NCBI GenBank assembly: GCA_902575815.1 | Contig: CACGTA010000001.1 | Location: 8,147-72,146 of the forward strand | Length of the DNA: 64,000 nucleotides | Source of the DNA: an uncultured Alphaproteobacteria bacterium | GTDB taxonomy: Bacteria > Pseudomonadota > Alphaproteobacteria > HIMB59 > GCA-002718135 | Direction: 5' to 3' | Part shown: piece after piece, positions 9,218-35,247 of the stretch | Layout: each line of letters opens with the position of its first letter | Position numbering within the stretch: the first letter of the stretch is position 1 | Notes under the pieces: model-generated | Database searches by the model: none | What the model was told of the DNA's origin: nothing | What the model saw: only the letters and a program-made list of their open reading frames with translations | Position numbers and translations under genes: made by a program

Positions 9218-10030
9218 ATGAAATTTGAAACAAACAAAAAATTTTACCGCACAATTTGGATTTCGGATACCCATCTAGGAACTAGTGGCTGTAAAAGCAA
9301 CATGCTTTTAGAATTCTTAGAAGAAACAGATTCAGAATATTTATTTTTAGTAGGCGACATTGTAGATGGATGGCGCATGCGTAAGAAAATGTATTGGCCA
9401 CAAGAACATAATGACGTTGTTCAAAAAGTTTTAAAGAAAGCGAAAAACGGAACTAAGGTAGTGCTTATTCCAGGAAATCATGATGAAGTATTAAAAGATT
9501 TTACAAATTTTTCTTTTGGAGAAATTTCGATCAAAAATGAAGATACGCATCAATTAGCTGATGGAAGAAAAGTACTTATTACACACGGAGATGAATTTGA
9601 TGCTGTGATCATTAATGCGAGGTGGTTAGCCAAAGTGGGATCAGCACTTTATGAATATTTACTAAAGTTAAATAATGTATTCAATTTTATTCGACGAAAG
9701 ATGGGCTTGTCTTATTGGTCACTGTCTCAATATTTAAAAAAGAAAACTAAGCATGCAACAAACTTTATTAGTAACTTTGAGTTTGCTGTATCTGACAGAG
9801 CTAGAAGAGAAAATGCCGATGTTGTCGTGTGCGGGCATATACATAGACCAGAAATAAAGGAATTAAATGGTGTTCTCTATTGTAATGATGGTGACTGGAT
9901 TGAAAGTTGCACAGCACTCGTTGAAGATGAAATTGGCAATTTATCAATTCTTAATTGGCCCGAAGAAAGAGAAAAATTAAAATTAATTTCTTTTGAAGAA
10001 AGACGAAAAATAAAAGAGGATGCAGCCTAA
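9218..10030 (+). CDS. plcP: Metallophosphoesterase of the PlcP type (phospholipase C for phosphate-stress lipid remodelling), copy 1
   Basis: Calcineurin-like motifs ISDTHLG, GDIVDG, GNHD, HGDEFD and GHIH. It overlaps a GT4 glycosyltransferase, which is the plcP-agt arrangement described for marine heterotrophs. Confidence 0.75.
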   Translation: MKFETNKKFYRTIWISDTHLGTSGCKSNMLLEFLEETDSEYLFLVGDIVDGWRMRKKMYWPQEHNDVVQKVLKKAKNGTKVVLIPGNHDEVLKDFTNFSFGEISIKNEDTHQLADGRKVLITHGDEFDAVIINARWLAKVGSALYEYLLKLNNVFNFIRRKMGLSYWSLSQYLKKKTKHATNFISNFEFAVSDRARRENADVVVCGHIHRPEIKELNGVLYCNDGDWIESCTALVEDEIGNLSILNWPEEREKLKLISFEERRKIKEDAA

Positions 10031-11021
10031 AAAAATCGCGTTAATTAGTGATGCGTGGGTTCCTCAGGTAAATGGCGTAGTTACGACATTTCAAAGCATT
10101 ATACCTATTCTAGAAAAAAAAGGTTTTGAAATTAAAATATTACATCCTGAGATGTTTAATAATTTTAGTTATCCTAGGTACAAAGAAATTAAAATTTCTT
10201 ACAATACTAAAAAAGTTACTGAAAAATTTTTTAAAGAATTTAATCCAGATATTGTTCATATAATGACTGAAGGTCCAGTAGGTTTTGCTGGTCGTAAGTA
10301 CTGTCTTAAAAATAAACTACAATACACTTCTTCCTTTCACACCCGTTTTCCTGACTACATTAAGCAAAGAGCTTTTATCCCAAAGAGATTTACATACTCC
10401 ATATTAAGAAGACTACATAGTGATTCAGAAAGAGTTCTTGTTCCATCAGTTTCAATGCTAAATGAGTTAAAAAAATATGATTTTAAAAATTTAGTAGTTT
10501 GGAATAGAGGTGTTGATACAGAATTATTTAATCCAAATAAAAGAGACACAAACAGTAAAGATAGACAACTGACTTATGTTGGTAGAGTAGCAATTGAAAA
10601 AAATATTGAAGAATTTTTAAATCTTAAAGGAAATTATAATAAAACTGTTGTGGGTGATGGTCCCGAATTACAAAAATATATTTATAAATATCCTGAAGTA
10701 AATTTTGTCGGTGTAAAAACTGGAGATGAACTAGCGAAATATTATGCAAACGCAGATGTATTTGTCTTTCCTTCTAAAACAGACACTTTAGGAAATGTAA
10801 TACTTGAAGCATTGGCTAGTGGAACACCAATTGCTGCATATCCAGTAACCGGGCCCATAGATGTGTTAACAGATGAAAAGATTAACACTTTAGATAATAA
10901 CTTGTTACAATCAGTTAAGAAGGCACTTAAAGTAAAAAGAGTTGATTGTAGAAATTTTACTCTTAAATTAACTTGGGACAAATGTGTGAATGAATTTTTA
11001 GAATTTATGGTAAAAGTTTAG
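10020..11021 (+). CDS. agt: GT4 glycosyltransferase, Agt-like diacylglycerol glycosyltransferase, copy 1
   Basis: N-terminal SDAWVPQVNGVV and C-terminal FVFPSKTDTLGNVILEALASGTP (GT-B, E-x7-E region). It overlaps plcP by 11 nt. Confidence 0.75.
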   Translation: MQPKKIALISDAWVPQVNGVVTTFQSIIPILEKKGFEIKILHPEMFNNFSYPRYKEIKISYNTKKVTEKFFKEFNPDIVHIMTEGPVGFAGRKYCLKNKLQYTSSFHTRFPDYIKQRAFIPKRFTYSILRRLHSDSERVLVPSVSMLNELKKYDFKNLVVWNRGVDTELFNPNKRDTNSKDRQLTYVGRVAIEKNIEEFLNLKGNYNKTVVGDGPELQKYIYKYPEVNFVGVKTGDELAKYYANADVFVFPSKTDTLGNVILEALASGTPIAAYPVTGPIDVLTDEKINTLDNNLLQSVKKALKVKRVDCRNFTLKLTWDKCVNEFLEFMVKV

Positions 11022-15477: not shown

Positions 15478-16473
15478 TTAATTTTTTGCATTTACAACAT
15501 TTGATAGAAATTGATTTGCACATTTATCCCAAGTAAATTGCATTGCAAATTTTCTACAATCTTTTCTATCAATCTTTAAGGCTTTATTAAGTGAGTTTTC
15601 AATATTATTATCAAGGCTATCAATTAATGAGTTTTTTAAAATATCTTTAGGACCTGTTACTGGGTACGCAGCCACTGGTGTGCCAGAGGCTAAAGACTCT
15701 AAAATTACATTTCCAAATGTATCTGTTTTGGATGGGAATACCAATGCTTCAGCATTTGCATAATAGTTTGCTAGGTCTTGACCTTTTTTCATCCCAACGA
15801 AAGACACATATGGATATTTATTTTGTAATCGTTGCTTTTCTGGACCATCTCCAACAACAATTTTATGCATCTTAGTTCTTATTTCTAAAAACGCTTCGAT
15901 GTTTTTTTCTAATGAAACCCTACCAATGTAAACAATATACTTTTTCATTCCCTTTTTTCTTTTTAAAGGATTAAATAATTCAGTATTAACTCCCCTTGAC
16001 CAAATTTTAAGATTTTGAAATTGATATTTAGTTAATTCGTTACGCATAGATATTGTTGGAACCAATACATTACATGCATTTTTATGAAAATTTTTTAAAA
16101 AAGAGTACCCAATTATTTTTGGTATCATTATTCTTTGCTCTAAATATTCTGGAAATCTCGTATGAAAAGAGGTTGTATATCTCAACTTATTATTCTCACA
16201 GAATTTTTTCCCCGCAATTCCAACTGGTCCTTCAGTGGCAATATGTATAACATCTGGATCATAATCACCAAAAAATTTTTCTGTTATTTTTTTTGTATTA
16301 ATTGCTATTTTTATTTCCTTATACCAAGGATAACTAAAATTAGTAAACATCATTGGGTGGAGTACTTCAATTTGATACTTTTGTTTTAAAAATGGATTAA
16401 TATGTTGGTATGTATTTACCACACCATTAACTTGGGGAAGCCAAGCATCGGTAATGATCGCTAATTTTTTCAC
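15478..16473 (-). CDS. agt: GT4 glycosyltransferase, Agt-like, copy 2
   Basis: 331 aa and collinear with copy 1 (TDAWLPQVNGVV...FPSKTDTFGNVILESLASGTP). It is roughly two-thirds identical by eye. Confidence 0.75.
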   Translation of the reverse strand: MKKLAIITDAWLPQVNGVVNTYQHINPFLKQKYQIEVLHPMMFTNFSYPWYKEIKIAINTKKITEKFFGDYDPDVIHIATEGPVGIAGKKFCENNKLRYTTSFHTRFPEYLEQRIMIPKIIGYSFLKNFHKNACNVLVPTISMRNELTKYQFQNLKIWSRGVNTELFNPLKRKKGMKKYIVYIGRVSLEKNIEAFLEIRTKMHKIVVGDGPEKQRLQNKYPYVSFVGMKKGQDLANYYANAEALVFPSKTDTFGNVILESLASGTPVAAYPVTGPKDILKNSLIDSLDNNIENSLNKALKIDRKDCRKFAMQFTWDKCANQFLSNVVNAKN

Positions 16474-17276
16474 ACTAATACACTTTCTGCTAGTTTGTTA
16501 TGTTTATGTTGAAAAATTTTTTCTCTTTCAATTGACCAGTCAATAAGGGATAATTGTCCCTCATTATTTTCCACTAGCGCAGAACAACTCTCAACCCAAT
16601 CACCATCATTGCAATATAAAACTCCATTTAATTTTTTTATAATGGGCTTATGAATATGGCCGCACACAACAACATCAGCATTTGCTCTTTTAGCACTATC
16701 AGATACGGCAAACTCAAAGTTAGAAATAAAATTCGTGGCTCTTTTTGTTTGATGTTTGAGAAATTGAGATAATGACCAATAAGATAGACCTAGTTTTCTT
16801 CTGACAAAATTTAGATAGTTATTCAACTTTAATATAAATTCGTATAGAGATGACCCAATACTTGCCAGCCATTTAGCGTTTAATATAACTGCATCAAATT
16901 CATCACCATGTAAAACAAGGGCATTTCTTCCATCAGCTAATTTGTGTGTAAACTTATTTTTTATTGATATATTCCCTAGTGAAAAACTTGTGTAACTTTT
17001 CACAAGTTCGTCATGATTACCTGGGATAAATATTACTTTTGTACCTTTTCTTGCTTTACGCAAAATCTTCTGGATAATGTCATTATGAGTTTGATGCCAA
17101 TAAATTTTTTTTTTCATTCTCCATGCATCAATAATATCGCCAACTAAAAATAAATATTTTGAATCTGTTGATCTCAAAAATTCAAGAAGCATTTCACTCT
17201 TGCTATTTTCTGTTCCAAGATGAAGATCAGATATCCATATAGTTCTATAATATGAAACTGATTGCTGATCTTTCAT
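16470..17276 (-). CDS. plcP: PlcP-type metallophosphoesterase, copy 2
   Basis: It carries the same motif set as copy 1 (ISDLHLG, GDIIDA, GNHD, HGDEFD, GHIH). It overlaps agt2 by 4 nt. Confidence 0.75.
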   Translation of the reverse strand: MKDQQSVSYYRTIWISDLHLGTENSKSEMLLEFLRSTDSKYLFLVGDIIDAWRMKKKIYWHQTHNDIIQKILRKARKGTKVIFIPGNHDELVKSYTSFSLGNISIKNKFTHKLADGRNALVLHGDEFDAVILNAKWLASIGSSLYEFILKLNNYLNFVRRKLGLSYWSLSQFLKHQTKRATNFISNFEFAVSDSAKRANADVVVCGHIHKPIIKKLNGVLYCNDGDWVESCSALVENNEGQLSLIDWSIEREKIFQHKHNKLAESVLV

Positions 17277-21418: not shown

Positions 21419-21994
21419 TTACGCGTGTTTAGCTAAAAAAGACTGTCTTGCTTCTTCTAAATAGGGGCGAAAATGTTCAACATCGGGAGTTTTTTTATCT
21501 AGAATTTTTGCTAGATCATCAAATCTTCTAAGCTCTACTGCCTCATCCATAAAAGGTTTGCTTATAAACGCATCTGCTTCTTCTTTTGTGAAAGGACCAC
21601 CTTGAACTTTTAAAGAAAGTTTCGATGCTTCTGATAGACTATCATAATAACCTTCTTCAACACTTGATAAATATCTTTTTGAATCAACATGTGCTCTTAT
21701 TGGTAAAATAACATCTTCACCAAAATATTTTTTTAAAAAATCAGCACCTAAGTTTTCATGATGACCATCTTTCCCTTCATGAATGGGATCGCCGTCCTCA
21801 TAAATAAGGTGGCCAACATCATGCAGTAATGCTGCAGCAATTGTTGGTCCTGGTAATTTATTTTTTTCAGCAAGTTCAGCGCATTGGAGTGCGTGCTCAA
21901 GCTGAGTCACATCCTCATTACCATATTGAGTATCAGCACCTTTTGTTTTCAAAAGATCTAAGAGATAATCTACGATATTTTCTTCCATTCTCAT
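21419..21994 (-). CDS. phnZ: HD-domain phosphonate oxygenase, PhnZ-like (PhnZ/TmpB family)
   Basis: 191 aa with QLEHALQCA, ALLHDVGH, HHENLGADFL, AHVDSKRYL, LS.AS...L..QGGP and RRFDD. This is the ligand spacing I recall for the di-iron PhnZ. Confidence 0.7.
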   Translation of the reverse strand: MRMEENIVDYLLDLLKTKGADTQYGNEDVTQLEHALQCAELAEKNKLPGPTIAAALLHDVGHLIYEDGDPIHEGKDGHHENLGADFLKKYFGEDVILPIRAHVDSKRYLSSVEEGYYDSLSEASKLSLKVQGGPFTKEEADAFISKPFMDEAVELRRFDDLAKILDKKTPDVEHFRPYLEEARQSFLAKHA

Positions 21995-22082: not shown

Positions 22083-23180
22083 ATGGATAAAAAATTATTA
22101 ACCCCTGGTCCTCTCACGACATCGATGTCAACAAAAGAGGCTATGCTTCATGATTGGGGTTCGAGAGATACAAAATTTATTGATCTCAATGCATCAATTA
22201 GAGATTCCCTTGTTAAATTAATAGACGGTGAAGATAAATATCAATGTGTTCCAATGCAGGGAAGTGGAACTTTTGCCGTAGAGTCGATGGTAAGCTCTCT
22301 TACTCAAAAAGATTCTAAAATTCTGATTCTGATCAATGGTGCTTACGGACAAAGAATGAAAAAAATGTGCACATATTTAGGGAGAGATTTTATTGAATAT
22401 GAAGTTGCTGAACATGAAGTACATGACATCAATAAAATTGAAGACTTAATTGATAGCAACAACTTAACACACGTCTTTGCTGTATATTGTGAAACAACAT
22501 CGGGTATTTTAAATCCTATTGAAGACATTGCAAAATTGGTTGAGGGGAAAAATTTATCGTTATTCATCGATGCAATGAGTGCCTTTGGTGCATTACCCTT
22601 AAGTTCTAAAACAATTACTTTTGATGCTGTAGCCGCTTCATCAAACAAATGCTTAGAAGGTGTGCCAGGTGTTGGTTTCATTCTTGTTAAAAATGAAGTT
22701 ATTCAAAATGCAAAAGGCAATAGTCACTCACTAAGTCTAGACTTGTATGATCAATGGCAAGCAATGGAAAAAAATAAACAATGGCGATTTACACCTCCAA
22801 CACACGTATTAGCTGCATTCAACCAAGCTATTGAAGAACATAAAGAACAAGGCGGTGTAGAGGGACGAGGCAAAAGATATAAAAAAAATTGTGAAATTAT
22901 TTGTAATGGAATGAAAGAGTTGGGATTTGAGCAACTACTTCCTGATAATTTGCAAGCACCAATTATTATTACGTTTAAACAACCTAGTGATCCTAAATTT
23001 AACTTTGATAAATTTTATAATGCTCTTAGTGAAAAAAATTTTTTAATTTATCCAGGAAAACTAACAGTGGCAGCAACTTTTAGAATTGGGTGTATTGGTA
23101 ATTTAGATGAACAAGACATGATGGATACAATAAAAGCTGTAAAAGAAGTCGTTACTGAATTGGGATTAACATTAAACTAA
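22083..23180 (+). CDS. phnW: 2-aminoethylphosphonate--pyruvate transaminase
   Basis: N-terminal LLTPGPLTTS and the PLP-lysine region SSNKCLEGVPG. It is 365 aa. Confidence 0.9.
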   Translation: MDKKLLTPGPLTTSMSTKEAMLHDWGSRDTKFIDLNASIRDSLVKLIDGEDKYQCVPMQGSGTFAVESMVSSLTQKDSKILILINGAYGQRMKKMCTYLGRDFIEYEVAEHEVHDINKIEDLIDSNNLTHVFAVYCETTSGILNPIEDIAKLVEGKNLSLFIDAMSAFGALPLSSKTITFDAVAASSNKCLEGVPGVGFILVKNEVIQNAKGNSHSLSLDLYDQWQAMEKNKQWRFTPPTHVLAAFNQAIEEHKEQGGVEGRGKRYKKNCEIICNGMKELGFEQLLPDNLQAPIIITFKQPSDPKFNFDKFYNALSEKNFLIYPGKLTVAATFRIGCIGNLDEQDMMDTIKAVKEVVTELGLTLN

Positions 23181-23187
23181 CAAAATA

Positions 23188-23820
23188 ATGACAATAAAAA
23201 TTGAAATACCTTTAGTTAAAGCAACAAATGAAAATCTTAAAGGATATGGGTATTTAATCGATAGTTTTGAAAATAGTGATATTGAAATTGTTACTTGGCC
23301 AAAACAAGGATGGCGCGACATAGAAGAGGGAACTGGTAATGAAGGTGGAACTACCGAAGGTTCTTTTGATACCTGGTGGCAAGGTGAAGTGCTTTATGGG
23401 CAAAATAATGCTGTTCAACATAAGAGCGATTATGAAGTAGATGGAAAATATATACTGGGTTATGCCAATAATCCTGATCAAGAATTACAAAAAGATAAAT
23501 ATTCAGATCCAACAAAAATTTTTTTATGGCATGCAAATTATCATCCTGATGGAGGTCAGCTTTTCTTTCCTGAAGAAAATAAACCATTTATTTGTCCTTT
23601 AGCCTTACCAACAGACGACATTGAACCAGAACATTTTAAAGCATTTTATTGTGACGGATCAAAGGGTTTGTATATTCATCCAAATATTTGGCATGAAGGG
23701 GTGTTTCCAGTTACAGAAAAACAATCTTTTCAAGGAAAACAAGGTAAAGTACATGCAAGAGTTAGTATTGATTTAAAAGAAGAGTTTGACAAATATATCT
23801 TTTTTAAAACTAGAATTTAA
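23188..23820 (+). CDS. Ureidoglycolate-lyase (AllA)-fold protein of unknown function
   Basis: The pattern GYGYLI ... YHPDGGQLFFP ... IHPNIWHEG resembles, from memory, the AllA blocks (YG..I, RHP.GTQ.F.P, YH.N.WH). It starts 7 nt after phnW. Confidence 0.4.
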   Translation: MTIKIEIPLVKATNENLKGYGYLIDSFENSDIEIVTWPKQGWRDIEEGTGNEGGTTEGSFDTWWQGEVLYGQNNAVQHKSDYEVDGKYILGYANNPDQELQKDKYSDPTKIFLWHANYHPDGGQLFFPEENKPFICPLALPTDDIEPEHFKAFYCDGSKGLYIHPNIWHEGVFPVTEKQSFQGKQGKVHARVSIDLKEEFDKYIFFKTRI

Positions 23821-23831
23821 TTGGTAATAGA

Positions 23832-24641
23832 TTATTTTATACCCGAAGTTGCAAAACTCTCTACAAACTGTCTTTGAAAAATAATAAATGCAATTATTAG
23901 TGGTGCGGTTACCATTAATGTCCCTGCGCTTATAGTAGCCCACTCGATACCTGATTCCTCCATAGAAAAGATAGCTAAACCAACATTTAAAATTCTAGTT
24001 TCCTCTGAGTTAGTTATTATTAAAGGCCACAAATAATTATTCCAATGATAAGATATTGATACAAGTCCATAAGCTAAAAAAGTAGGTATAGATAATGGTA
24101 TGTAAACATGCCATAAAATTCGTAATGCTCCAGCACCATCAATCCTCGCAGAATCATCTAGCTCTTTTGGAACAGTTTTGAAAGCTTGTCTTAAAACAAA
24201 AATTCCAAAAGCAGATGCAATGTAGGGAAGGCTAATTGCAGGAATGGTATCTATCAAATTTAAGAATTTAATTGTTTTATAATTTTCGATAAGAATGATT
24301 TCTGGATTAATCATTAGTTGAATTAAAACTAATCCAAAAAGTATGTTCTTAAAAGGAAACTCATATCTTGCAAAAGCAAATGCAGTCAGAGAACATAAGA
24401 TAAACTGGCATGAAGTGGTCATTGTAACGTATATAAATGTGTTGAACATATATCTTGCAAAAGGAGCTTGTGACCAAGCATTTTCAAAATTGTATAAGGT
24501 CAGAGGGGCAAACAAATCAAATTTAACTTGATATTCTATTGGGTGTATCGAAGCCCAGATTGCATATAAGAGCGGTAGTAACCATAAAAATCCAAGTAAC
24601 CAAGCACCAATAATATTAATATTTTTATAGAATGAATACAT
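23832..24641 (-). CDS. CUT1-type ABC permease (UgpE/MalG-like)
   Basis: 269-aa membrane protein with the EAA loop LDDSARIDGAGALRILWHVYIPL. Confidence 0.8.
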   Translation of the reverse strand: MYSFYKNINIIGAWLLGFLWLLPLLYAIWASIHPIEYQVKFDLFAPLTLYNFENAWSQAPFARYMFNTFIYVTMTTSCQFILCSLTAFAFARYEFPFKNILFGLVLIQLMINPEIILIENYKTIKFLNLIDTIPAISLPYIASAFGIFVLRQAFKTVPKELDDSARIDGAGALRILWHVYIPLSIPTFLAYGLVSISYHWNNYLWPLIITNSEETRILNVGLAIFSMEESGIEWATISAGTLMVTAPLIIAFIIFQRQFVESFATSGIK

Positions 24642-24643
24642 TT

Positions 24644-25522
24644 TTATTGGTAATGGACCTTTCTATCCAATAAAAAAATTTGACCAATTCCTATTATTGA
24701 CAATAATATAATTAGTAAAACCGATAATGTTATTGCGTATGCTGTATCCCAAAATTCAAAACCATTCTCATAAATATAATAGAGTAATAAAGCGCTGTTG
24801 TAATTTGGACCTCCACCAGTCATAGTGAATAAATGTTCTATTCGTGTAAAGGCAGTAATTACTGCATTGACTGAAACAAATAATAAGGTTGGTGTTATCA
24901 TTGGTAGTGTAATTTTGTAAAACATTTGCCAACTATTAGCCCCTTCAATAATTGCTGCCTCTTTCATTTCCCTAGGTATTCCTTGAAGAGCAGCTAGAAA
25001 AAAAATCATGTAAAAACCAGACTCTTTCCAAATACTTACAGCAATAATACCCCATAAAACTTGATCAGGGTTTCCTAAAATATTTGTATTTTGGAAACCA
25101 AATAATGATCCAACTTGATCAATTAATCCAAAACCAGGAAGAAAAAAAAAGAGCCATATATTACCAACAGCTATTAAGGGTAAAACTACAGGTAAAAAAT
25201 ATGCAAAACGAAGCAATGGTCTACCGGGTAACTTGCTGTTTACCCATTGCGCCATAATTATTGCAATAATTATTGAAGATGGGATTGTAGAAATTGCATA
25301 AACAATATTGTTAGACATAACCTTCCAAAAAATGGGGTCTGAAAACATATGTTCATAATTTTCAATACCTTTAAACTTACTTGGTTTTCTCCCTTTAGGA
25401 GTAGAAAAAAAACTCATATAAATTGTTTTAACAACAGGTATGTGAACAAAAGTTAATAATAATATGAATCCAGGCGATAAAAGTAAAATTACTGGTATAT
25501 GTTTTTTAATTTTAGTTATCAT
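24644..25522 (-). CDS. CUT1-type ABC permease (UgpA/MalF-like)
   Basis: 292-aa membrane protein with the EAA loop KEAAIIEGANSWQMFYKITLP. Confidence 0.8.
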   Translation of the reverse strand: MITKIKKHIPVILLLSPGFILLLTFVHIPVVKTIYMSFFSTPKGRKPSKFKGIENYEHMFSDPIFWKVMSNNIVYAISTIPSSIIIAIIMAQWVNSKLPGRPLLRFAYFLPVVLPLIAVGNIWLFFFLPGFGLIDQVGSLFGFQNTNILGNPDQVLWGIIAVSIWKESGFYMIFFLAALQGIPREMKEAAIIEGANSWQMFYKITLPMITPTLLFVSVNAVITAFTRIEHLFTMTGGGPNYNSALLLYYIYENGFEFWDTAYAITLSVLLIILLSIIGIGQIFLLDRKVHYQ

Positions 25523-25555
25523 AAAAAAAACGGCACTATTATTAACTAGTGCCGT
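25523..25555 (-). terminator. Intrinsic terminator/attenuator hairpin between the binding-protein gene and the permeases
   Basis: The minus strand reads ACGGCACT-(10 nt)-AGTGCCGT followed by eight T. Confidence 0.65.
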
Positions 25556-25569
25556 TTGATATTTTTTCT

Positions 25570-26844
25570 TTATCTGTAATCTTTTAGTATTTTATCAATT
25601 TCGGCATGCGCCTCTAAAAGAGCAGTTTTAGGATCTTTTTCCCCAGCAACTGCTGCTTCTAACGCTCTATTAAAAATTGAAACAGTTTTAGGTTGCTCGT
25701 AGGTCGAAAATTCTGGACCTGCATACTCCAACTGATCTCTTGCAACAGCTGGATATGGAAATTCTTTTAAAAATTCTTTCATTTCATCAGACTCCCAAGT
25801 CTCAGCTCTAGGTGCAACATAACCAGTGGCTTTTGTCCAGGCAACAGACTGTTTAGGTTCTGTTATCCATTTTACAAAGTCTTTTGTTGCTTGCTGTTCC
25901 TCTTCTGTAGTGTCAATTGATAGATAAAAATTTCCTCCTCCAACTGGTGCTCCAAATTGTTTAATACCAGGAATGAAAGCTACACCCCAATCAAACGGAG
26001 CATTATTTCTGACGTTTGTCAGATTTCCAGTAGTAGTCCACATCATTGCAGTTTGACCCTCAAAAAATGCCTGTGGAGTAGATCCCCATTCAAGTATACC
26101 TGGTCTCATCACCCCTTCAGTAGTACTAAGAGCTACAAGTTTTTCTAATGCTTCAATGGCTTCTGGTGAATTAATATATGTTTCAGTGCCATTATCGTTC
26201 ATAATTTTTCCACCATTGCCATAAACAATTGCACTAAATAACCAGTATGGAAAACCAGCAGATGGAATTCTTATTCCGTATTGACTTACATTTCCATCAG
26301 AATCTTTGATTGTTAATTTTTTTGCAACTTCTAGCTGTTCATCCCAAGTCTTAGGTGGATTTTCAGGATCTAATCCCGCAGCTCTAAAAGCGTCCTTATT
26401 GTAATAGAGTACTGGTGTTGATCTTTGAAATGGAATCCCATAAGTTTTACCATCAACTTGACCATTAGCCATAAAAGCAGGATAAAAACCACCTATCCAA
26501 TTATCAATTTCGTCTTGAGTTAATATATCGTCCCAAGCCATTACACATTCTTCGTCTATATATTTAAAAATTGTAACAGCAATCATAACTGATGTTGCAG
26601 GAGCTGTTCCAGATTTACATGCTGTTAGAAATTTAGTATCTGTATCTGTATAACTTCCTGTGAAAACAGCTTTCACATTTACATCTGGATTTAATTTTGT
26701 GTAATCTTCTGCAAATTTCTCAATTGCCTGAGCAGCTCCACCACCTACAGCGACTGGAAAATAAAATTCTAGGTCAATAGCCCTTACACTTAATGATGTT
26801 ATTACCACGGTTAAAGAGATAATAAGTAATTTAATTATATTCAT
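25570..26844 (-). CDS. Family-1 extracellular solute-binding protein, UgpB-like (glycerol-3-phosphate/glycerophosphodiester candidate)
   Basis: It has a signal peptide, is 424 aa, and carries the YGIPF.RSTPVLYYNKD block typical of CUT1 binding proteins. It is divergent from a GpdQ-like diesterase. Confidence 0.75.
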   Translation of the reverse strand: MNIIKLLIISLTVVITSLSVRAIDLEFYFPVAVGGGAAQAIEKFAEDYTKLNPDVNVKAVFTGSYTDTDTKFLTACKSGTAPATSVMIAVTIFKYIDEECVMAWDDILTQDEIDNWIGGFYPAFMANGQVDGKTYGIPFQRSTPVLYYNKDAFRAAGLDPENPPKTWDEQLEVAKKLTIKDSDGNVSQYGIRIPSAGFPYWLFSAIVYGNGGKIMNDNGTETYINSPEAIEALEKLVALSTTEGVMRPGILEWGSTPQAFFEGQTAMMWTTTGNLTNVRNNAPFDWGVAFIPGIKQFGAPVGGGNFYLSIDTTEEEQQATKDFVKWITEPKQSVAWTKATGYVAPRAETWESDEMKEFLKEFPYPAVARDQLEYAGPEFSTYEQPKTVSIFNRALEAAVAGEKDPKTALLEAHAEIDKILKDYR

Positions 26845-26985: not shown

Positions 26986-27780
26986 ATGATGAAAATTATT
27001 CACCTCTCTGACCCCCATATTCATACAAATGAATTATTTGGCATAAACTCTGTAGAAAGATTCAAATGTGCTTTAGAACACATTGTTTTAAATCACCGTG
27101 ATGCAGATATGTTTGCTATAACTGGTGATATAACAGACATTGGAGATGAAGATTCTTACAATCTGTTTAAAAAAATAATAAAAGAATTTAATCTACCCCT
27201 AAACCTTGAACCAAAACTAATACCTGGTAATCATGACAATCGTGAAAATTTTAAAAAAACTTTAAATCATGTGCCAACTGATAGTAATGGATTTATCCAA
27301 TACTACGATGACTATAAGAATAATAGATTTATTTTTATAGATACTCTAGAGCACGGAACACACATTGGTCATTATACGTTAAAAAGACAAGAATGGTTGA
27401 TTGATCTTTTAAATAACACAGATGATAATAAAGAAATTTATATATTTATGCACCATAATCCATTGGCACTGGTTAGAGATGAAAGCGATGGTATTGGATT
27501 AAAACATAAAAAAGAATTTAAAGAAATATTGATTAGTAAAAAAAATATTAAACATATTTTTTTTGGTCATCAGCATATTACTAGTTCCGGATCATATCTT
27601 GGTATAAGTTTTTCCTCGCCAAGGAGCACATGGTCACCTCTAATACCAAATTTTTCATCTGAATATAGGCTTGGTTTAGCTAATACTGATCCAAATTACA
27701 ATGTAGCAATTTTAAATAAAAATGGAATAGTAATTCATACTGAAGATTTTTTAAAAACAGAAGTTAATTGGTTTAAATAA
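26986..27780 (+). CDS. Metallophosphoesterase, GpdQ/CpdA-like (glycerophosphodiesterase candidate)
   Basis: Motifs HLSDPH, GDITD, PGNHD, IFMHHNP and FFGHQH. It is 264 aa. Confidence 0.7.
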   Translation: MMKIIHLSDPHIHTNELFGINSVERFKCALEHIVLNHRDADMFAITGDITDIGDEDSYNLFKKIIKEFNLPLNLEPKLIPGNHDNRENFKKTLNHVPTDSNGFIQYYDDYKNNRFIFIDTLEHGTHIGHYTLKRQEWLIDLLNNTDDNKEIYIFMHHNPLALVRDESDGIGLKHKKEFKEILISKKNIKHIFFGHQHITSSGSYLGISFSSPRSTWSPLIPNFSSEYRLGLANTDPNYNVAILNKNGIVIHTEDFLKTEVNWFK

Positions 27781-27783
27781 AAA

Positions 27784-28890
27784 TTATTTTTTTTCGATTA
27801 CAAATATTTCATTGTTAAAATAAAGACCTTTATTTTTAGCAACAATATTTTGAACTACTTTTTCGTAATTTTTTGTTTTTTCTACCTTCATTACTTTATC
27901 ATCATCCATTTGATTGACATATATGGAGGCATTCCAAGCAGAAAAAACTAATGATGTCGCTATACCTCCACTGATTTCTGTTGGTAGAGCTCTCAATTTA
28001 CATTTAATAATTCTTTTTTCTCCAAAAGATAAACTACTTAATAAATCTTTATCTAAATTTTTCTTAAGATAAGAAATGATACTATTTCCAAGAGAAGGAA
28101 AAGGGTCCTCTTTTGGCCAAATTTTACGAATTATTTCATTAGCAGGATCTTTTCCTGAAGCATGAATGGTTAATAATTTCCCTTTTGATTTTAATGCTCT
28201 AATCATTGGTTCGATAACGTATTTTGATTTCTTTTCTGCTGAAATTCTTGAACGATAAGGCTGTGAAGCAATAATAAGATCAAATTTATTATCTGATTTT
28301 TTTTTGGTAGGAATTAATTCATTAACATTAAATTCTTGATCTTCGCGGTAGATAACCATGACTGAAGGCTCTTTATAAGTATGGTTACCTGACTTTTTAT
28401 TAATTTCTATATTCCATTTTTTTTCTAAAAATTCATTTTGTTTTCTTAATTGTTGAGCAAATTCAAGAGAAGTGTCACCTTTTAATTTAATAATATTCCA
28501 ATTAATTTTTTTCTGTTTAACTTCATTTTTTGATTTTAGGTTTGCGGCTTCAGCGTAGTGTAGATTTGAAATGACAAAAACGGTATTCTTATGTTCAACA
28601 AACCTATCGGGTAATTTTTCTAGACCTAATCTTACATCTTCTATGCTTATTTCTTTTGTGCAAACTAATAAAGGTACGTTAGGCCTGGCCTCGTGGCACT
28701 GACGCATAACATTCATAAGTAAGGAACCATCACCCATACCAGCATCAAATATTTTTATGCCAGGTTTTTGAGGTTTAATTTTATTTACGTGAGGGCGTAT
28801 CGCATCGGCAATTTGATTTTTTTCATTTGTTGTTGTGACAAATAATAAATATTTTTGTCTGTTATCATAAAACCTAAAATTTTTTTTCAT
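27784..28890 (-). CDS. Class I SAM-methyltransferase-like protein, function unknown
   Basis: IFDAGMGDGSL (motif I-like), DLIIASQ and GKLLTIH blocks. It is 368 aa and starts 2 nt after the Fe-ADH gene. Confidence 0.4.
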   Translation of the reverse strand: MKKNFRFYDNRQKYLLFVTTTNEKNQIADAIRPHVNKIKPQKPGIKIFDAGMGDGSLLMNVMRQCHEARPNVPLLVCTKEISIEDVRLGLEKLPDRFVEHKNTVFVISNLHYAEAANLKSKNEVKQKKINWNIIKLKGDTSLEFAQQLRKQNEFLEKKWNIEINKKSGNHTYKEPSVMVIYREDQEFNVNELIPTKKKSDNKFDLIIASQPYRSRISAEKKSKYVIEPMIRALKSKGKLLTIHASGKDPANEIIRKIWPKEDPFPSLGNSIISYLKKNLDKDLLSSLSFGEKRIIKCKLRALPTEISGGIATSLVFSAWNASIYVNQMDDDKVMKVEKTKNYEKVVQNIVAKNKGLYFNNEIFVIEKK

Positions 28891-28892
28891 TA

Positions 28893-30005
28893 CTAATAAA
28901 GTCCCATTGATTTAGCAGAAGAGATGAAGGCTTCTTTATTGCCAATAAAGTTTTTACCTCGTTCCCCTAAAAACGCATCATCTACTATATTATTCCATTC
29001 TTGAACAGGAACTTTTATTTCATTTAAGTTAAGAGGAACCTCTAAAGAACGCATAAATTCACTCAGATGATTTGCAGCATTCTCTAGATTATCGTTAAAA
29101 ATTAATTTTAGTCTTTCTTCAGCGACACTATCAATTCCAACCATACTTTTAGTAATCATCGGTAAAGTAAATGAACAAGCAATACCATGCTGAATACCGT
29201 AATTGAGTGTCACGGGGTATGATAGATTATGCGCAATAGCAGTTTTCGTATTGGAAAACGCTAAGCCAGCATGAACGCACGCCAATGCAATGTTTGAACG
29301 TAATTCAATGTTTCTTAAATCTTTAGCGAGAAGTGGTAAATTTTCTAATACTAATTTTGATGCTTGTATTGCATGTGAAGCAGAAACTGGGTTTGCATTA
29401 ATATTCCAAATACTTTCCATTGAATGGGAGAGAGCATCTAAACCAGTTGAAATGGTCAAGCCTAAAGGTTTATCAACCATAATAGATGGATCGATAATTG
29501 CTTTTTCTGCATAAAGAGATTTATGCACCAAAGATAATTTATTATTGTTTTCTTTATCCCATATTGTGGCCCAACACGTAAGCTCACTTGATGCTCCTGA
29601 AGTTGTAGGTATTGCAATAATCTTGATTGGATTTTCGACTCTTGGATTTTTCTTATTACGAACGAAATCTGTTAGATATTCTTGTTTATCTTTAAATGTA
29701 GCAATTGCTTTAGCTGTGTCTGTAACAGAGCCACCACCTATAGCTAAAATATAATCTACCGATTCATTGATTGAAGAAAATTTATTTTGCAACTCTAAAA
29801 TATCCTTATAATCTGGATTAGGCTGAACATCGGTCATAATGGATAAAGGTGGGTTTGAAGAAAATTTTAATTCATCGCTATATTTTTTAAAAATTTCCTC
29901 TGGATGAGTGATTATGATGTAGTTCTTATTTTTAAGAGCATCATGCACTTCTTTAAATCTATTTTCTCCAAAGATAATTTCAACAGGGTTAAAATAATTC
30001 CACAT
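28893..30005 (-). CDS. Iron-containing alcohol dehydrogenase, phosphonate-associated type (phosphonoacetaldehyde / 2-hydroxyethylphosphonate oxidoreductase candidate)
   Basis: Fe-ADH blocks GGGSVTDTAK, PTTSGASSE and the His cluster (ALSHSMES, AHNLSYP). A phosphonate-linked Fe-ADH subfamily is established. Confidence 0.75.
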   Translation of the reverse strand: MWNYFNPVEIIFGENRFKEVHDALKNKNYIIITHPEEIFKKYSDELKFSSNPPLSIMTDVQPNPDYKDILELQNKFSSINESVDYILAIGGGSVTDTAKAIATFKDKQEYLTDFVRNKKNPRVENPIKIIAIPTTSGASSELTCWATIWDKENNNKLSLVHKSLYAEKAIIDPSIMVDKPLGLTISTGLDALSHSMESIWNINANPVSASHAIQASKLVLENLPLLAKDLRNIELRSNIALACVHAGLAFSNTKTAIAHNLSYPVTLNYGIQHGIACSFTLPMITKSMVGIDSVAEERLKLIFNDNLENAANHLSEFMRSLEVPLNLNEIKVPVQEWNNIVDDAFLGERGKNFIGNKEAFISSAKSMGLY

Positions 30006-30009
30006 TACC

Positions 30010-31089
30010 TTAAATTGATTTTGCCGCTTTAGTTAAAATTGTCATTTTCTCAATTGCTTGTTCTCGCGTGAAGAAACCTAAACCACAATCTGGTGCAGCT
30101 ATTAAACGGTGTTCATCAATATGTTCAAGTGAATCTTTGATACGAACTCTTACTTCTTCAACAGACTCCATTCTACTTTTTGCAATATCAATAAATCCAA
30201 AAATTACTTTTGTTTTAGTAAATTTTTCTAAAAGATTTAAATCATTATGCCTATGTGAATCTTCTAAAGATACTTCATCAATAGTTGAATCATCTACCAG
30301 TGATGCAATTCTATCATAAGCATCTAGATCAGCCTTTTTATACCCTTCTGAATCTAATGAGTTAGGATAACCACAACAAATATGGCAAACGCGTTGCACT
30401 TCTTTAGGAATACCATGCATCATTCTTTCTAAATTTTCCATACCATATGAATGAGCTTCATCGGGTTTTCTAGCAAATACTGGTTCATCAATTTGAATAT
30501 ACTGACAACCTGCATCCACAAGTGCCTTAATTTCTTTATTGAGAGCTAATGCTAAATCAAAACCAAGTTTTTTCATGTCATCATAGTAATTGTTGGCAAT
30601 TGAATCTGTAATTGTCATTGGTCCAGGTAGCGTAATTTTAACTGGGTTTTTTGTAAATTGTTGTGCACTCTTCCAGTCTAAATGCATACGTATTTCTTTA
30701 CTTGAAATCGGTGCAACAATAGTTGGAAGGTCAGCTTCGAACGCACCTTGTCTTACTGACTTATGTGTAACTTCCTTAAAACTTACTCCATTTAAAAATC
30801 TGCATTGATATAATACATAACTCTCGCGTCTGACTTCTCCATCTGTTGGAACATCAATACCTGCATTTACTTGATCAGTTATAACTTCTTTAATTGCTGC
30901 TAAAAATAATTTTTCAGCATCTGCACCTGCAGACTCTAATGCTTTTTCATATGCGCCAGGTGACCAATTTGATAATAATCCTTTTGACGCTTTTCTCTCT
31001 TCTTCTGATTTTGTCCCTAAAAACCAATCTTGAATAGGTGTTTGTTTCGGTTTTGGATAAGCACCTATTGTAGTTGTTGTAAGAGGCAT
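30010..31089 (-). CDS. MetE C-terminal-domain-like (cobalamin-independent methionine synthase family) Zn-thiol alkyltransferase
   Basis: 359 aa. TTIGAYPKP N-terminus, HICCGY (His/Cys) and APDCGLGF (Cys) zinc-ligand motifs of the Meth_synt_2 fold. Confidence 0.7.
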   Translation of the reverse strand: MPLTTTTIGAYPKPKQTPIQDWFLGTKSEEERKASKGLLSNWSPGAYEKALESAGADAEKLFLAAIKEVITDQVNAGIDVPTDGEVRRESYVLYQCRFLNGVSFKEVTHKSVRQGAFEADLPTIVAPISSKEIRMHLDWKSAQQFTKNPVKITLPGPMTITDSIANNYYDDMKKLGFDLALALNKEIKALVDAGCQYIQIDEPVFARKPDEAHSYGMENLERMMHGIPKEVQRVCHICCGYPNSLDSEGYKKADLDAYDRIASLVDDSTIDEVSLEDSHRHNDLNLLEKFTKTKVIFGFIDIAKSRMESVEEVRVRIKDSLEHIDEHRLIAAPDCGLGFFTREQAIEKMTILTKAAKSI

Positions 31090-32566: not shown

Positions 32567-34009
32567 TTACCAGGGTAGTGAGAAGGTTTTTACATTAGTA
32601 AAGCTTTTCATTGCTTCAATTACACCTTCTTTATAACCAAGTCCTGAATCTTTAATTCCTCCAAAAGGAGACATTTCAATTCTATAGCCTGGAACTTCCC
32701 AAATATTTACAGTGCCAACATTTAAGCCTTGAATATATTTTTTTGCTCTCATGAAGTTATTTGTGCATACACCAGATGATAATCCGAATGCGGTTGAATT
32801 AGATATTTTCATTACAGCTTCATCGTCATTAGGCACACGAATGATTGGTATAACTGGACCAAATGTTTCTTCTAAAACTAATTCACTTTTAGGATCAACA
32901 TGATCTACAACTATTGGAGGTAACAAAGCACCCTTTCTTCCAGGGTGATATAAAATTTTTGCACCGTCTTCTTCAGCCATAGAAACTCTTTTATCAAAAA
33001 GTTCTGCAGCTTGAGCATTAACAACAGTACCTAAGTCTGTTTCCATATTCATAGGATCACCAAATTTAATTTTCTTAGCACGCTCAAGAGCCATTTCAAC
33101 AAATTGATCTGCAATGGATTCTTGAACCAATATTCTTTTTACAGCTGTACAACGTTGACCAGAATTTTTCGTTGCTCCAGTAACAGCTAGTTCAACAGCT
33201 TTTTTAAGATCATCACCATCTAAGTCATTTAAAACAATTAATGGATCATTACCGCCAAGCTCTAGTACTGTTCTTTTGTATCCAGCTTGTTCAGCAATTA
33301 ATTTTCCTACACCCACACTGCCTGTAAAAGTAATTAGATCAATGTTTGGATTTTTGATCATTTCTGATCCAATGTCTTGAGGCCATCCAGTTACAACTGA
33401 AAACATTTCAGGTGGTAAACCTGCTTCATATAAAACATCGGCGAGTACCATTGCTGTTAAAGGTGTTAATTCTGTTTGTTTACATACAGTACAATTATTA
33501 GTTGCAATTGAAGGTGCAATTTTATGCGCTACCATATTCAAAGGATGATTAAATGGGGTGATTGCTGAGATTGCCGTTAAAGGTTCTCTTATGGTAAATA
33601 TTTTTCTGGCTTTTCCATGTGGAGTTAAATCACAAGAAAATATTTCTCCATCATCATGAATACAAAGTTGAGCCGTTAATGAAAATACATCGAAAGCTCT
33701 TCCTACTTCGTATAAAGAATCTTGTTTTGAGATACCAAGTTCTAAAGTAATAATATCAGAAATTTCTTCTTTTCTTTTAACAAGTACTTCTGCAGCAGTT
33801 TGAAGAATTTTTTGTCTCTCATATCTTGTAAGTTTAGGCTGATAATTTGCAGCTATATCTAAAGCCTTTCTTGCATGCTCTGCGGTACCGGCTGGAACCG
33901 TTCCGATTACTTCACCTGTAAAAGGGTACTCAACATTTATTGTTTTATCTGAAGTAACTTTTTCTCCAGCAATACGCATTGCTTCATTAATCATTTTTTT
34001 GTGCATCAT
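32567..34009 (-). CDS. phnY: NAD-dependent aldehyde dehydrogenase, phosphonoacetaldehyde dehydrogenase candidate
   Basis: 480 aa with ALDH blocks ELGGNDP and GQRCTAVKR (catalytic Cys). It overlaps phnA by 4 nt. Confidence 0.75.
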
Positions 34010-35247
34010 AGGGCTCCATTTATTGCATAATAAAATGCATCATAGTTATATAATTGTTTGCTAGTATCTAAGTTTTGTAATTTTAAATTTGATATGAATG
34101 GCACTTCTCTTTCATGGAGTCCTCCATGAGAACGTAAAGGTTCATTTAATCCAGAAAGATTGTGTTTATCTTCCGATGAACCAATAGTCATAAATTCTGA
34201 AGACATACATATAATATCTCCCATTCTATCAGGAGGTAAATTGTAAGTAGAGCATCCTTCATCTTTTGTTAAAACAACTTCTATATCTTTTATTTCTTTA
34301 ATAGCATTTACAACTGAATCTACCTTGCTCTTGTCTTCTAAATAAATTGTTGCAAAAGAACCAAGTGAACCATGATGAACAACATATGGATCTGTAATTG
34401 GTAGGATGACTTTAGCCATGTTTGGTTCAAATTTTTTATCTAAATAATCTTGTAAAAATATTGCATTAGGTGAACCATCTTCTTTTGATTTTGGTTTCAT
34501 TCCGTGATCTGCTGTGATGATTATAGAAACATTCTCCTTATTTAAAAGACCAATATATTTATCAAACATTGCATAAAATTTATTTGCTGTTTCATTTCCC
34601 GGTGCATATTTGTGTTGAATATAATCCGTAGTCGATAAATACATAATATTTGGTTTAAACTCTTCAAGAAGTTTTACACCTGCAGCCATTACAAATTCAG
34701 AGAGTCCTTCAGAATATACTTCTGGCACTGGCATCCCCAACCAATCGTTTACATTATCTATACCATTGAGATCTTTTGTTGCTTGATCAGATTTTTCAGC
34801 AGAAAAACAAATAGCTCTCTCATCATCAAAACTTAATCCGTTTCCTAAAAGTGTTCTCAACTTGTCTTTTGCAGTAACAAGAGCAATTTTAGAACCAGAA
34901 TTGTAAAATTTTTCAAAAATAGTTGGTGCTCGCATATATTTTGGGTCATTCATCATTACTTCTTCACCAGTCTCAGGTGTATAAAAGAAGTTTCCGCATA
35001 TACCGTGTACAGAACTTGGTTGGCCTGTTACAATCGAAATGTTATTTGGATTTGTAAAACTTGGAATAGCGCTGTGAACAAGTAGGTTTTCACCACTTGC
35101 AATTAATTTATCAAGATTTGGTGTAAGATTAGATTTTGATGCTTCTTCGAGATACTCTTTTTGACTGCCATCAAGGCAAATCACAATAGCAGTTTTTGAA
35201 AAATTACTTGGATATTCTCTTTTATTAATTTCTAAGTTATCGGACAC
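34006..35247 (-). CDS. phnA: Phosphonoacetate hydrolase (alkaline phosphatase superfamily)
   Basis: 413 aa. [14 protein letters not shown]-terminus, TADHGM metal site and NPP/AP-superfamily layout match PhnA-type hydrolases. Confidence 0.75.

Follow-up and report, generated by a model that had tools for sequence, protein, structure and literature searches.

The phnW–AllAL locus

We analysed a 64,000-nt stretch of contig CACGTA010000001.1 from an uncultured alphaproteobacterium (hereafter, the window) and in particular the gene that follows phnW, which encodes 2-aminoethylphosphonate (AEP)–pyruvate transaminase. The product of this second gene, here called AllAL, is an AllA-like cupin. The window has a G+C content of 31% and is most closely related to single-cell genomes from uncultured Alphaproteobacteria/Pelagibacteraceae (93–99% protein identity). 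As a whole, it forms an island for phosphorus acquisition, which encodes a PstS-like binding protein, a histidine kinase, PhoU, Ppx, and Ppk, together with two metallophosphoesterase/glycosyltransferase pairs and two UgpB-like ATP-binding cassette (ABC) systems.

The phnW stop codon ends at position 23180 and the ATG of AllAL lies at position 23188, leaving a gap of 7 nt. An earlier reading of this stretch from its letters alone (the sequence-only reading) had described an open reading frame (ORF) of 210 amino acids at this distance from phnW and had regarded the two genes as co-transcribed. The ORF and the identity of phnW were confirmed, phnW also scoring above the cutoffs for TIGR03301 and TIGR02326, and co-transcription holds. 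Also present in the window are phnY and phnA, which score above their equivalog cutoffs and had not been listed in that reading. Because these two genes are present, the route from AEP via phosphonoacetaldehyde and phosphonoacetate to acetate and phosphate is, on the sequence evidence, complete in the window; the PhnW route lacks no C2-phosphonate step.

Divergently oriented from phnW is a gene for a PhnZ/TmpB-type HD-domain diiron oxygenase. This protein scored 158.6 bits against the TmpB model, and its best PDB matches were TmpB (6npa; 38% identity) and, next, PhnZ (4mlm). The substrate-binding Tyr and Glu of PhnZ were considered as a clue to its substrate and discarded, as they are conserved alike in PhnZ, TmpB, and the SAR11 enzyme. 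That this gene is accompanied by no recognisable hydroxylase, as noted previously, holds both within the 64-kb window and in about 30 SAR11 loci (±8 kb): a tblastn search with TmpA found no TmpA-like sequence in the window, and no TauD, PhyH, or other 2-oxoglutarate (2OG) oxygenase domain was present among its approximately 45 annotated ORFs.

Table 1. Positions in the window (counted from its first nucleotide) of the genes and AllAL motifs discussed in the text
Feature	Position	Strand	Evidence or remark
DSP/PTP-like phosphatase, 174 aa	20894-21418	-	PF22784, 49 bits; abuts phnZ, no intergenic gap
PhnZ/TmpB-type HD-domain diiron oxygenase	21419-21994	-	TIGR03276, 202.7 bits (cutoff 214.6); divergent from phnW
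phnW, 2-aminoethylphosphonate–pyruvate transaminase	22083-23180	+	NF010006, 508 bits (cutoff 296)
AllAL, AllA-like cupin	23188-23820	+	ORF with ATG start, 210 aa
AllAL first metal-site motif, H119-P-D121-G-G-Q124	23542-23559	+	AllA alignments; H and Q common with AllA, D family-specific
AllAL second cupin motif, I163-H164-P-N-I-W168-H169 (IHPNIWH)	23674-23694	+	Equivalent to AllA YHRNVWH
AllAL H189, family-wide conserved His	23752-23754	+	No aligned AllA counterpart
Calcineurin-like metallophosphoesterase	26986-27780	+	PF00149, 61.5 bits; SpdA-like, 162 bits
PhpC-type iron-dependent alcohol dehydrogenase (Fe-ADH)	28893-30005	-	TIGR03405, 363.5 bits (cutoff 423.7)
phnY, phosphonoacetaldehyde dehydrogenase	32567-34009	-	TIGR03250, 798.7 bits (cutoff 635.65)
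phnA, phosphonoacetate hydrolase	34006-35247	-	TIGR02335, 467.4 bits (cutoff 407.55)

Fold and metal site of AllAL

The AllA-type fold previously suggested for AllAL was borne out by both profile searches and structure prediction. AllAL matched the Pfam family PF04115 (Ureidogly_lyase) with 40 bits (gathering score 23), the match being limited to residues 119–182 (profile positions 76–139 of 162). A phmmer search of the PDB found Escherichia coli AllA (1xsr/1xsq/1yqc) at E = 3e-6, and a profile of 52 AllAL family sequences found it at E = 3e-15. The AlphaFold2 model, predicted from a 52-sequence alignment that included distant representatives, had a pLDDT of 94.3 and a pTM of 0.90. When this model was compared with the PDB using Foldseek, AllA structures ranked first (2bdr, 1xsr, 1xsq, and 1yqc; E = 1e-9 to 4e-8; target TM 0.62–0.73), followed by DUF4867 (9gyy) and then by generic cupins (MncA, oxalate decarboxylase, RmlC-type epimerases, and Ni-quercetinase). 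The eight NCBIfam AllA equivalog and subfamily models scored AllAL at only 22–33 bits against cutoffs of 160–315 (best, 33.1 vs 230). By these profile scores, AllAL is a member of the AllA superfamily but not an AllA equivalog. It had no match to the TauD, PhyH, or 2OG-FeII_Oxy families in Pfam or NCBIfam at E ≤ 0.01, no 2OG oxygenase was among its top Foldseek matches, and HEPD, MPnS, and HppE were absent from its 50 best Foldseek matches in the PDB and from its PDB sequence matches.

Both motifs highlighted in the sequence-only reading are present, YHPDGG at residues 118–123 (nt 23539–23556) and IHPNIWH at residues 163–169. Its description of AllA as carrying RHPLG was also correct for the AllA chain in our alignment, which reads ...ELERHPLGTQAFIP.... 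In the HMMER alignments, H-E-L-E-R-H-P-L-G-T-Q of AllA corresponds to W-H115-A-N117-Y-H119-P-D121-G-G-Q124 of AllAL, and G-V-N-Y-H-R-N-V-W-H-H to G-L-Y-I-H164-P-N-I-W-H169-E. Thus, H119, Q124, H164, and H169 of AllAL all have the same residue in AllA, D121 corresponds to Leu, and N117 to the AllA Glu located two residues before the His. AllA is a Ni2+-dependent, non-redox lyase (PMC3793230). Because H119, H164, H169, and Q124 are inherited from this lyase, the HxD...H pattern is not a signature of oxygen activation. Its former interpretation as the iron site of an oxygenase was not supported: both His and the Gln came from AllA, and D121 alone is new. Judged from the alignments, HxD...H in AllAL is a remodelled, inherited cupin metal site and gives no evidence for O2 chemistry.

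Conservation was assessed in 120 close homologues, 150 representatives at 50% identity, and 41 genome loci. Residues R43, Y88, N117, Y118, H119, D121, Q124, W168, H169, Q185, H189, and E199 are under strong purifying conservation from SAR11 to bivalves and are conserved family-wide, as are W37 and K/R184. The homologues retain the HxD motif: H119 is conserved throughout the family, and D121 is Asp in 100 of 115 of the 50%-identity representatives and in all 41 genome loci. The first metal-site motif (H119...Q124) was invariant in sequence set A3, H169 was His in 93 of 95 representatives, and H189 was conserved in 76 of 81 representatives and in 41 of 41 loci. Another set of residues (H115, H164, E170, R191, and S193) is invariant in the clade of the window protein and in all 41 genome loci; in roughly half of the wider family these positions differ (often E, x, Q, C, and x). 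Among the basic residues that might bind the C5 carboxylate of 2OG, the R191-x-S193 motif is invariant only in the window protein's clade, the position being Cys in about half of the family; R43 and K/R184 are found family-wide.

Distribution and annotation of the AllAL family

The homologue search identified 3969 clusters at 90% identity (E ≤ 1e-3), some with >1000 member sequences, and the top 120 clusters were marine-metagenome sequences that were 68–86% identical to AllAL. A search of 50%-identity representatives gave 800 matches, 435 of them at E ≤ 1e-10, and when one genome per species was scanned, a relative of AllAL was found in at least 597 species. The family includes members from Pelagibacterales, Roseobacters (Leisingera, Ruegeria, and Amylibacter), Sneathiella, Mesorhizobium, Betaproteobacteria, Arenicellales, Oceanospirillaceae, and Anaerolineae, among others. 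A second, distant clade comprises Chitinophagales, Endozoicomonas, and Deltaproteobacteria, plus many bivalves, the brachiopod Lingula, and protists. The bivalve, Lingula, and protist homologues (P0271–P0409) were 42–48% identical to AllAL and often occurred in several copies; bivalves are classical AEP-rich animals. Homologues were also encoded on giant-virus-like contigs (L086/L087, 8001–8687; L096, 7001–7609; L098, 7001–7654), which are long, consist mostly of ORFans, and carry thymidine kinase, DNA ligase, and DUF5767/DUF5770 genes. On plasmids, copies were found only on Paraburkholderia megaplasmids, where they were annotated as 'hypothetical protein' in an uninformative context.

Members of the family bear the public names 'ureidoglycolate lyase', 'ureidoglycolate hydrolase', 'ALLA-like', and 'hypothetical protein', and no paper on the family turned up in the phosphonate, SAR11, or Pbf literature. 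AllAL represents an uncharacterised, distinct, ancient, and very widespread branch within the AllA fold. Two unusual arrangements were observed: a Burkholderiales metagenome-assembled genome carries two tandem paralogues (L039, 3371–4914), and in a protein of 418 amino acids (P0232), the AllA-like domain is fused to a C-terminal VOC/glyoxalase-superfamily domain. A match of 3944 amino acids (P0147) was discarded as a PKD-repeat artefact.

Association of AllAL with phosphonate genes

The linkage of AllAL to phosphonate genes is not unique to the window's genome, and such genes adjoin it in many lineages. The module in which a DSP-phosphatase gene and phnZ diverge from phnW and AllAL is kept in about 30 SAR11 loci (within ±8 kb), and the phnW–AllAL pair in about 35 loci, with a 4-nt overlap of the two genes in L030 and L032. 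In other loci, AllAL was located in the arrangements PhnA–ALDH–PhnW–AllAL (L036), AEP ABC transporter (PhnT2, 520 bits)–permease–PhnW–AllAL with PhnA nearby (L041), PhnY (813 bits)–DUF72–AllAL with PhnW adjacent (L040), PhnW–AllAL–PbfD (TIGR03364, 412 bits; L065), and PhnX-like (TIGR03351)–AllAL–PbfD (L050), or 3 kb from a PhnW–HAD–ABC cluster (L094). Seven Roseobacter loci contained a LysR gene and TmpA (604 bits)–TmpB (366 bits)–AllAL, the last two genes abutting, and two further Roseobacter loci contained TmpB–AllAL without TmpA.

In three Chitinophagales loci (L088–L090), PhnZ is divergent from a row consisting of AllAL, an alkaline-phosphatase-superfamily enzyme, and a ceramidase. This PhnZ is 40% identical to the PhnZ-like protein of the window and scored above the TIGR03276 cutoff (231 bits); its surroundings include a TonB receptor, a secreted phosphodiesterase, and PhoD, and no hydroxylase was found near PhnZ–AllAL in these loci. 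Other members of the distant clade lie in the arrangements TonB receptor–phosphodiesterase–AllAL–HAD–PhyH (Fe/2OG), with DUF5690, an HD protein, and an Fe-ADH (L095); penicillin-amidase-like–AllAL–HD–PhyH, with DUF5690 nearby (L097); and FeS protein–DUF5690–GbcA-like Rieske oxygenase–DAO oxidase–AllAL (L092). The DUF5690 membrane protein thus recurs both beside PhyH/HD/AllAL and beside the GbcA-like Rieske oxygenase and DAO oxidase, and it may be an unrecognised aminophosphonate transporter.

Phosphonate genes were located within 8 kb of AllAL in 14 of the 43 non-core genome loci. Among the 12 contexts looked up in the distant clade, four were phosphonate-linked (L088, L094, L095, and L097), and a fifth (L092) was the DUF5690/Rieske/DAO locus. 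Overall, the linkage recurs in about ten lineages and involves phnW, PhnX-like, PhnY/PhnA, PbfD, TmpA/B, PhyH/HD, or PhnZ alone. AllAL accompanies every known kind of AEP-type pathway, namely the transaminase/phosphonatase, transaminase/dehydrogenase/PhnA, FAD oxidase/phosphonatase-like, and Fe-2OG hydroxylase/HD oxygenase pathways, the last covering both AEP-type and trimethyl-AEP substrates. Phosphodiesterases and amidases are also found nearby, including the metallophosphoesterase of SAR11, alkaline-phosphatase-superfamily enzymes (L088 and L095), a ceramidase (L088), a penicillin-amidase-like protein (L097), and a C-N hydrolase (L074), and these neighbours fit loci that take conjugated phosphonates apart. 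The link between AllAL and phosphonate catabolism is strong and previously unreported.

A proposed accessory enzyme of AEP catabolism

The reading that we tentatively prefer is that AllAL is a cupin of the AllA branch that was recruited as an accessory enzyme of AEP-type phosphonate catabolism, like the Pbf enzymes (PbfA lyase, PbfC and PbfD oxidases, PbfF racemase, and PbfG dehydrogenase). The genes of the latter are non-core genes that recur in phnW, phnX, and phnYA clusters, and ancillary Pbf enzymes widen the substrate range of AEP clusters (PMC8154272, PMC10590968, PMC12366243, PMC13576164). AllAL likewise recurs in AEP clusters of unrelated taxa and flanks PbfD in two loci (L050 and L065); it differs in its unrelated fold and in its additional presence in oxidative (PhnZ/TmpB) clusters, and it is not mentioned in the Pbf-enzyme papers (Peracchi group). 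An accessory enzyme is favoured because three lineages have AllAL alongside 2OG hydroxylases and six have it in purely hydrolytic clusters. AllAL would then serve marine phosphonate use in an accessory enzymatic role that has gone unrecognised, and it is probably not simply the 'missing hydroxylase'.

The AllA ancestry of the protein, its retained metal site, and the precedent of AllA itself favour a non-redox, metal-assisted mechanism. In DUF4867, a related cupin, the metal sits at corresponding positions (Glu-x-His...Glu...His; PMC11968277). A divalent metal of the Ni/Fe/Mn type would be bound at H119, Q124, and H169, perhaps also with D121 and H189. Chemistry of the AllA type might then proceed by metal chelation of a hydroxyl together with an anionic group, followed by alkoxide collapse; the details of both the ligand set and this sequence of events are highly provisional. 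The outcome would be cleavage or rearrangement (elimination or isomerisation) at the hydroxyl-bearing carbinol carbon of an AEP-related compound. A conceivable substrate is a hydroxylated or N-substituted AEP derivative, such as 1-hydroxy-AEP, whose ammonium group would be held by D121 and the conserved aromatics W37, Y88, Y118, and W168, and whose phosphonate would be held by R43 and K/R184. Since AllAL accompanies both hydrolytic and oxidative routes, its reaction should lie at their common aminophosphonate pool, that is, AEP, its N-methyl forms, 1-hydroxy-AEP, or their immediate precursors; AllAL would provide a compound of the AEP type, interconvert such compounds, or remove one, and would not act on a route-specific intermediate. 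A PbfA-like conversion of 1-hydroxy-AEP to phosphonoacetaldehyde would fit most of the contexts, but not all. The idea that AllAL generally converts the PhnW product into the PhnZ substrate was rejected, as in most lineages just one of PhnW and PhnZ is present.

Several observations weigh against an accessory enzyme of this kind. Approximately 60% of the AllAL loci have no phosphonate gene within 8 kb; the neighbours of these loci are heterogeneous, with no common theme (SDR, GNAT, thiolase, PhaC, Fic, PLP decarboxylase, sulfatase, and others), and the genes look monocistronic. Homologues also exist in bivalves, the brachiopod, protists, and giant-virus-like contigs, for which no genomic context is available. 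Simple adducts of AEP or phosphonoacetaldehyde, whether carbinolamines or hydrates, decompose unaided and need no enzyme. Furthermore, enzymes are already at hand for all known steps of the associated pathways, so that the function of AllAL may be dispensable or conditional.

Alternative functions

The completeness of every accompanied pathway also speaks for the possibility that AllAL is no phosphonate catalyst at all. It could be an accessory protein that binds a small ligand or a metal, acting as a sensor or supplying or maintaining the metal of diiron HD oxygenases, or it could detoxify a harmful analogue or aldehyde that is imported along with AEP or arises from it. The many orphan loci beside MFS, EamA, or GNAT genes, the single VOC/glyoxalase fusion, and the GFA-family gene that adjoins AllAL in Paraburkholderia are all consistent with this possibility. 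A parallel is offered by DUF4867 (SqvB/SftX, 9gyy), an AllA-related metallo-cupin and the second-best fold match to AllAL, which is likewise an unexplained extra that recurs in organo-anion (sulfonate) catabolic clusters, in sulfoglycolysis, where all steps are covered by enzymes; its metal ligands, Glu97, His99, Glu103, and His150, occupy the canonical cupin positions (PMC11968277). DUF4867 differs from AllAL in its ligand set and pathway and has no detectable sequence similarity to it. However, the conserved, polar, His-rich pocket predicted for AllAL resembles an active site, Pfam identified no DNA-binding or signalling domain in the protein, and the role of a metal donor for HD oxygenases was rejected, as it does not account for the hydrolytic clusters that contain only PhnW, PhnX, or PbfD. 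We consider a non-catalytic or detoxifying role quite improbable. A function in purine catabolism, with AllAL as a true, though divergent, ureidoglycolate lyase (EC 4.3.2.3) in the allantoin pathway and an incidental placement among phosphonate genes, appears highly improbable. Its basis is the AllA/DAL3 family itself (EC 4.3.2.3; PF04115; 1xsq, 1yqc, and 2bdr), which has the same cupin fold, provides the best structural matches and a PF04115 score above the gathering threshold, and has in common with AllAL an N-terminal strand (..PL...F..YG..) and the 'HP.G.Q' and 'H.N.WH' motifs, which imply a metal-dependent site with the His/Gln/His set retained. In addition, homologues are named 'ureidoglycolate lyase' in the sources, including many NCBI and JGI annotations; in Sneathiella loci, but in no others, a gene of the M20 carbamoylase/allantoate-amidohydrolase subfamily lies just upstream of AllAL; and marine invertebrates with AllAL homologues degrade purines to urea. 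Nevertheless, the scores fall far below the AllA equivalog cutoffs, overall identity is approximately 15%, and the C-terminal third alone aligns. The N-terminal half of AllAL has about 50 extra residues with invariant motifs of its own (WPxxGWR and GTG.EGG), Asn117 and Asp121 replace the Glu and Leu of AllA, and His189 and Glu199 are additional conserved residues. The window contains no allantoin or purine-catabolism genes, and a placement in phosphonate operons in about ten lineages is very unlikely to have arisen by chance.

The sequence-only reading had speculatively put AllAL forward as a candidate for the hydroxylase of the divergent phnZ. In general form, this would make AllAL an O2-activating non-heme enzyme that hydroxylates C1 of AEP or N-methyl-AEP, or otherwise produces the 1-hydroxyphosphonate for PhnZ/TmpB where PhnY* and TmpA are lacking, which we regard as unlikely. 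Similarly doubtful is its more specific form, in which AllAL, a cupin unrelated to Fe/2OG oxygenases, is the partner of 'orphan' PhnZ in SAR11 and some Bacteroidota and makes the 1-hydroxyphosphonate, perhaps from AEP or N-methyl-AEP in an O2-dependent hydroxylation or else from phosphonoacetaldehyde. PhnZ-type enzymes require a 1-hydroxy substrate, and the absence of a nearby hydroxylase, the part of the proposal that stood, extends from the window and the SAR11 module, with no gene of the TauD/PhyH type, to the PhnZ–AllAL pair of Chitinophagales and, with respect to TmpA, to the two TmpB–AllAL loci of Roseobacters. An HD oxygenase adjoins AllAL in five or six lineages, the family-specific D121 would create an H-x-D...H arrangement on cupin metal positions, and quercetinase-type cupins are among the weaker fold matches. 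Moreover, phnZ outnumbers phnY* three- to sixfold in marine surveys (9.4% vs 1.6% of GOS genome equivalents and 10% vs 3% at HOT/BATS; PMC3266647), and Pelagibacterales hold 45% of marine phnZ (PMC9381506). Against this stands the coexistence of AllAL with the very enzymes it would replace. PhnY* (PhyH-type) and TmpA (GBBH-type) resemble AllAL in their HD-oxygenase neighbours, jelly-roll barrel, and H-x-D...H-like pattern; however, they have no homology to AllAL, and an Fe/2OG hydroxylase and an HD oxygenase occur together with AllAL in the same operons in Roseobacters (TmpA) and in L095 and L097 (PhyH). Six types of hydrolytic-only clusters (PhnW/PhnX-like/PhnY–PhnA/PbfD) have no HD oxygenase within 7–8 kb and no PbfA nearby, and a C1-hydroxylase is disfavoured because 1-hydroxy-AEP would be a dead-end product there. 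AllAL also has no homology to any 2OG oxygenase and no family-wide R-x-S motif for 2OG binding, both His and the Gln of its putative metal site are inherited from a Ni-dependent lyase (PMC3793230), and its tightest coupling is to phnW, not phnZ. The idea nevertheless stays alive at a modest probability, because SAR11 and Chitinophagales pair PhnZ with AllAL without a hydroxylase and because phnZ outnumbers phnY* several-fold in the surveys.

Implications for marine phosphonate use

AEP-type phosphonates are a major source of phosphorus in the oligotrophic ocean. An abundant, conserved gene within the phosphonate module of Pelagibacterales, which in other phyla accompanies AEP pathways of every known kind, is still without an assigned function. 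Databases probably mislabel AllAL as ureidoglycolate lyase, which can inflate the counts of purine catabolism in metagenome surveys. Once assigned, its reaction would represent either a new substrate-funnelling step in phosphonate catabolism or the solution to the orphan PhnZ; the latter, if true, would amount to a new oxidative route of C–P cleavage and would account for the several-fold excess of phnZ over phnY* in the ocean. The presence of AllAL in bivalves suggests that the family may also function in the phosphonate metabolism of eukaryotes.

Other features of the window

The PhpC-type Fe-ADH probably acts as a 2-hydroxyethylphosphonate/phosphonoacetaldehyde dehydrogenase, as suggested by its similarity to a class of described function (PMC13576164), and would feed 2-hydroxyethylphosphonate into the PhnW/PhnY/PhnA route. 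Its gene is part of a conserved block on the minus strand (27784–31089), which encodes a 368-amino-acid methyltransferase-like protein, the Fe-ADH, and a 359-amino-acid MetE-like protein (PF01717); a UgpB-like binding protein comes next. In phosphonate metabolism, no function has been assigned to the MetE-like and methyltransferase-like genes. The pairing of the DSP/PTP-like phosphatase gene with phnZ is also kept in about 30 SAR11 loci. No role is known for this phosphatase in the PhnZ pathway, in which phosphate is released directly.

Downstream of AllAL, a three-gene ABC transporter module on the minus strand (23832–26844) is an insertion polymorphism between AllAL and the calcineurin-like metallophosphoesterase. 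Most SAR11 relatives instead have a metallophosphoesterase gene about 20 nt after AllAL, whose product is 68% identical to that of the window (26986–27780), giving a would-be phnW–AllAL–phosphoesterase operon. The two metallophosphoesterase/glycosyltransferase pairs of the island are located at 9218–11021 and 15478–17276, each combining a calcineurin-like phosphoesterase with a glycosyltransferase of family 4, and resemble the PlcP/Agt genes of phosphate-stress lipid remodelling.

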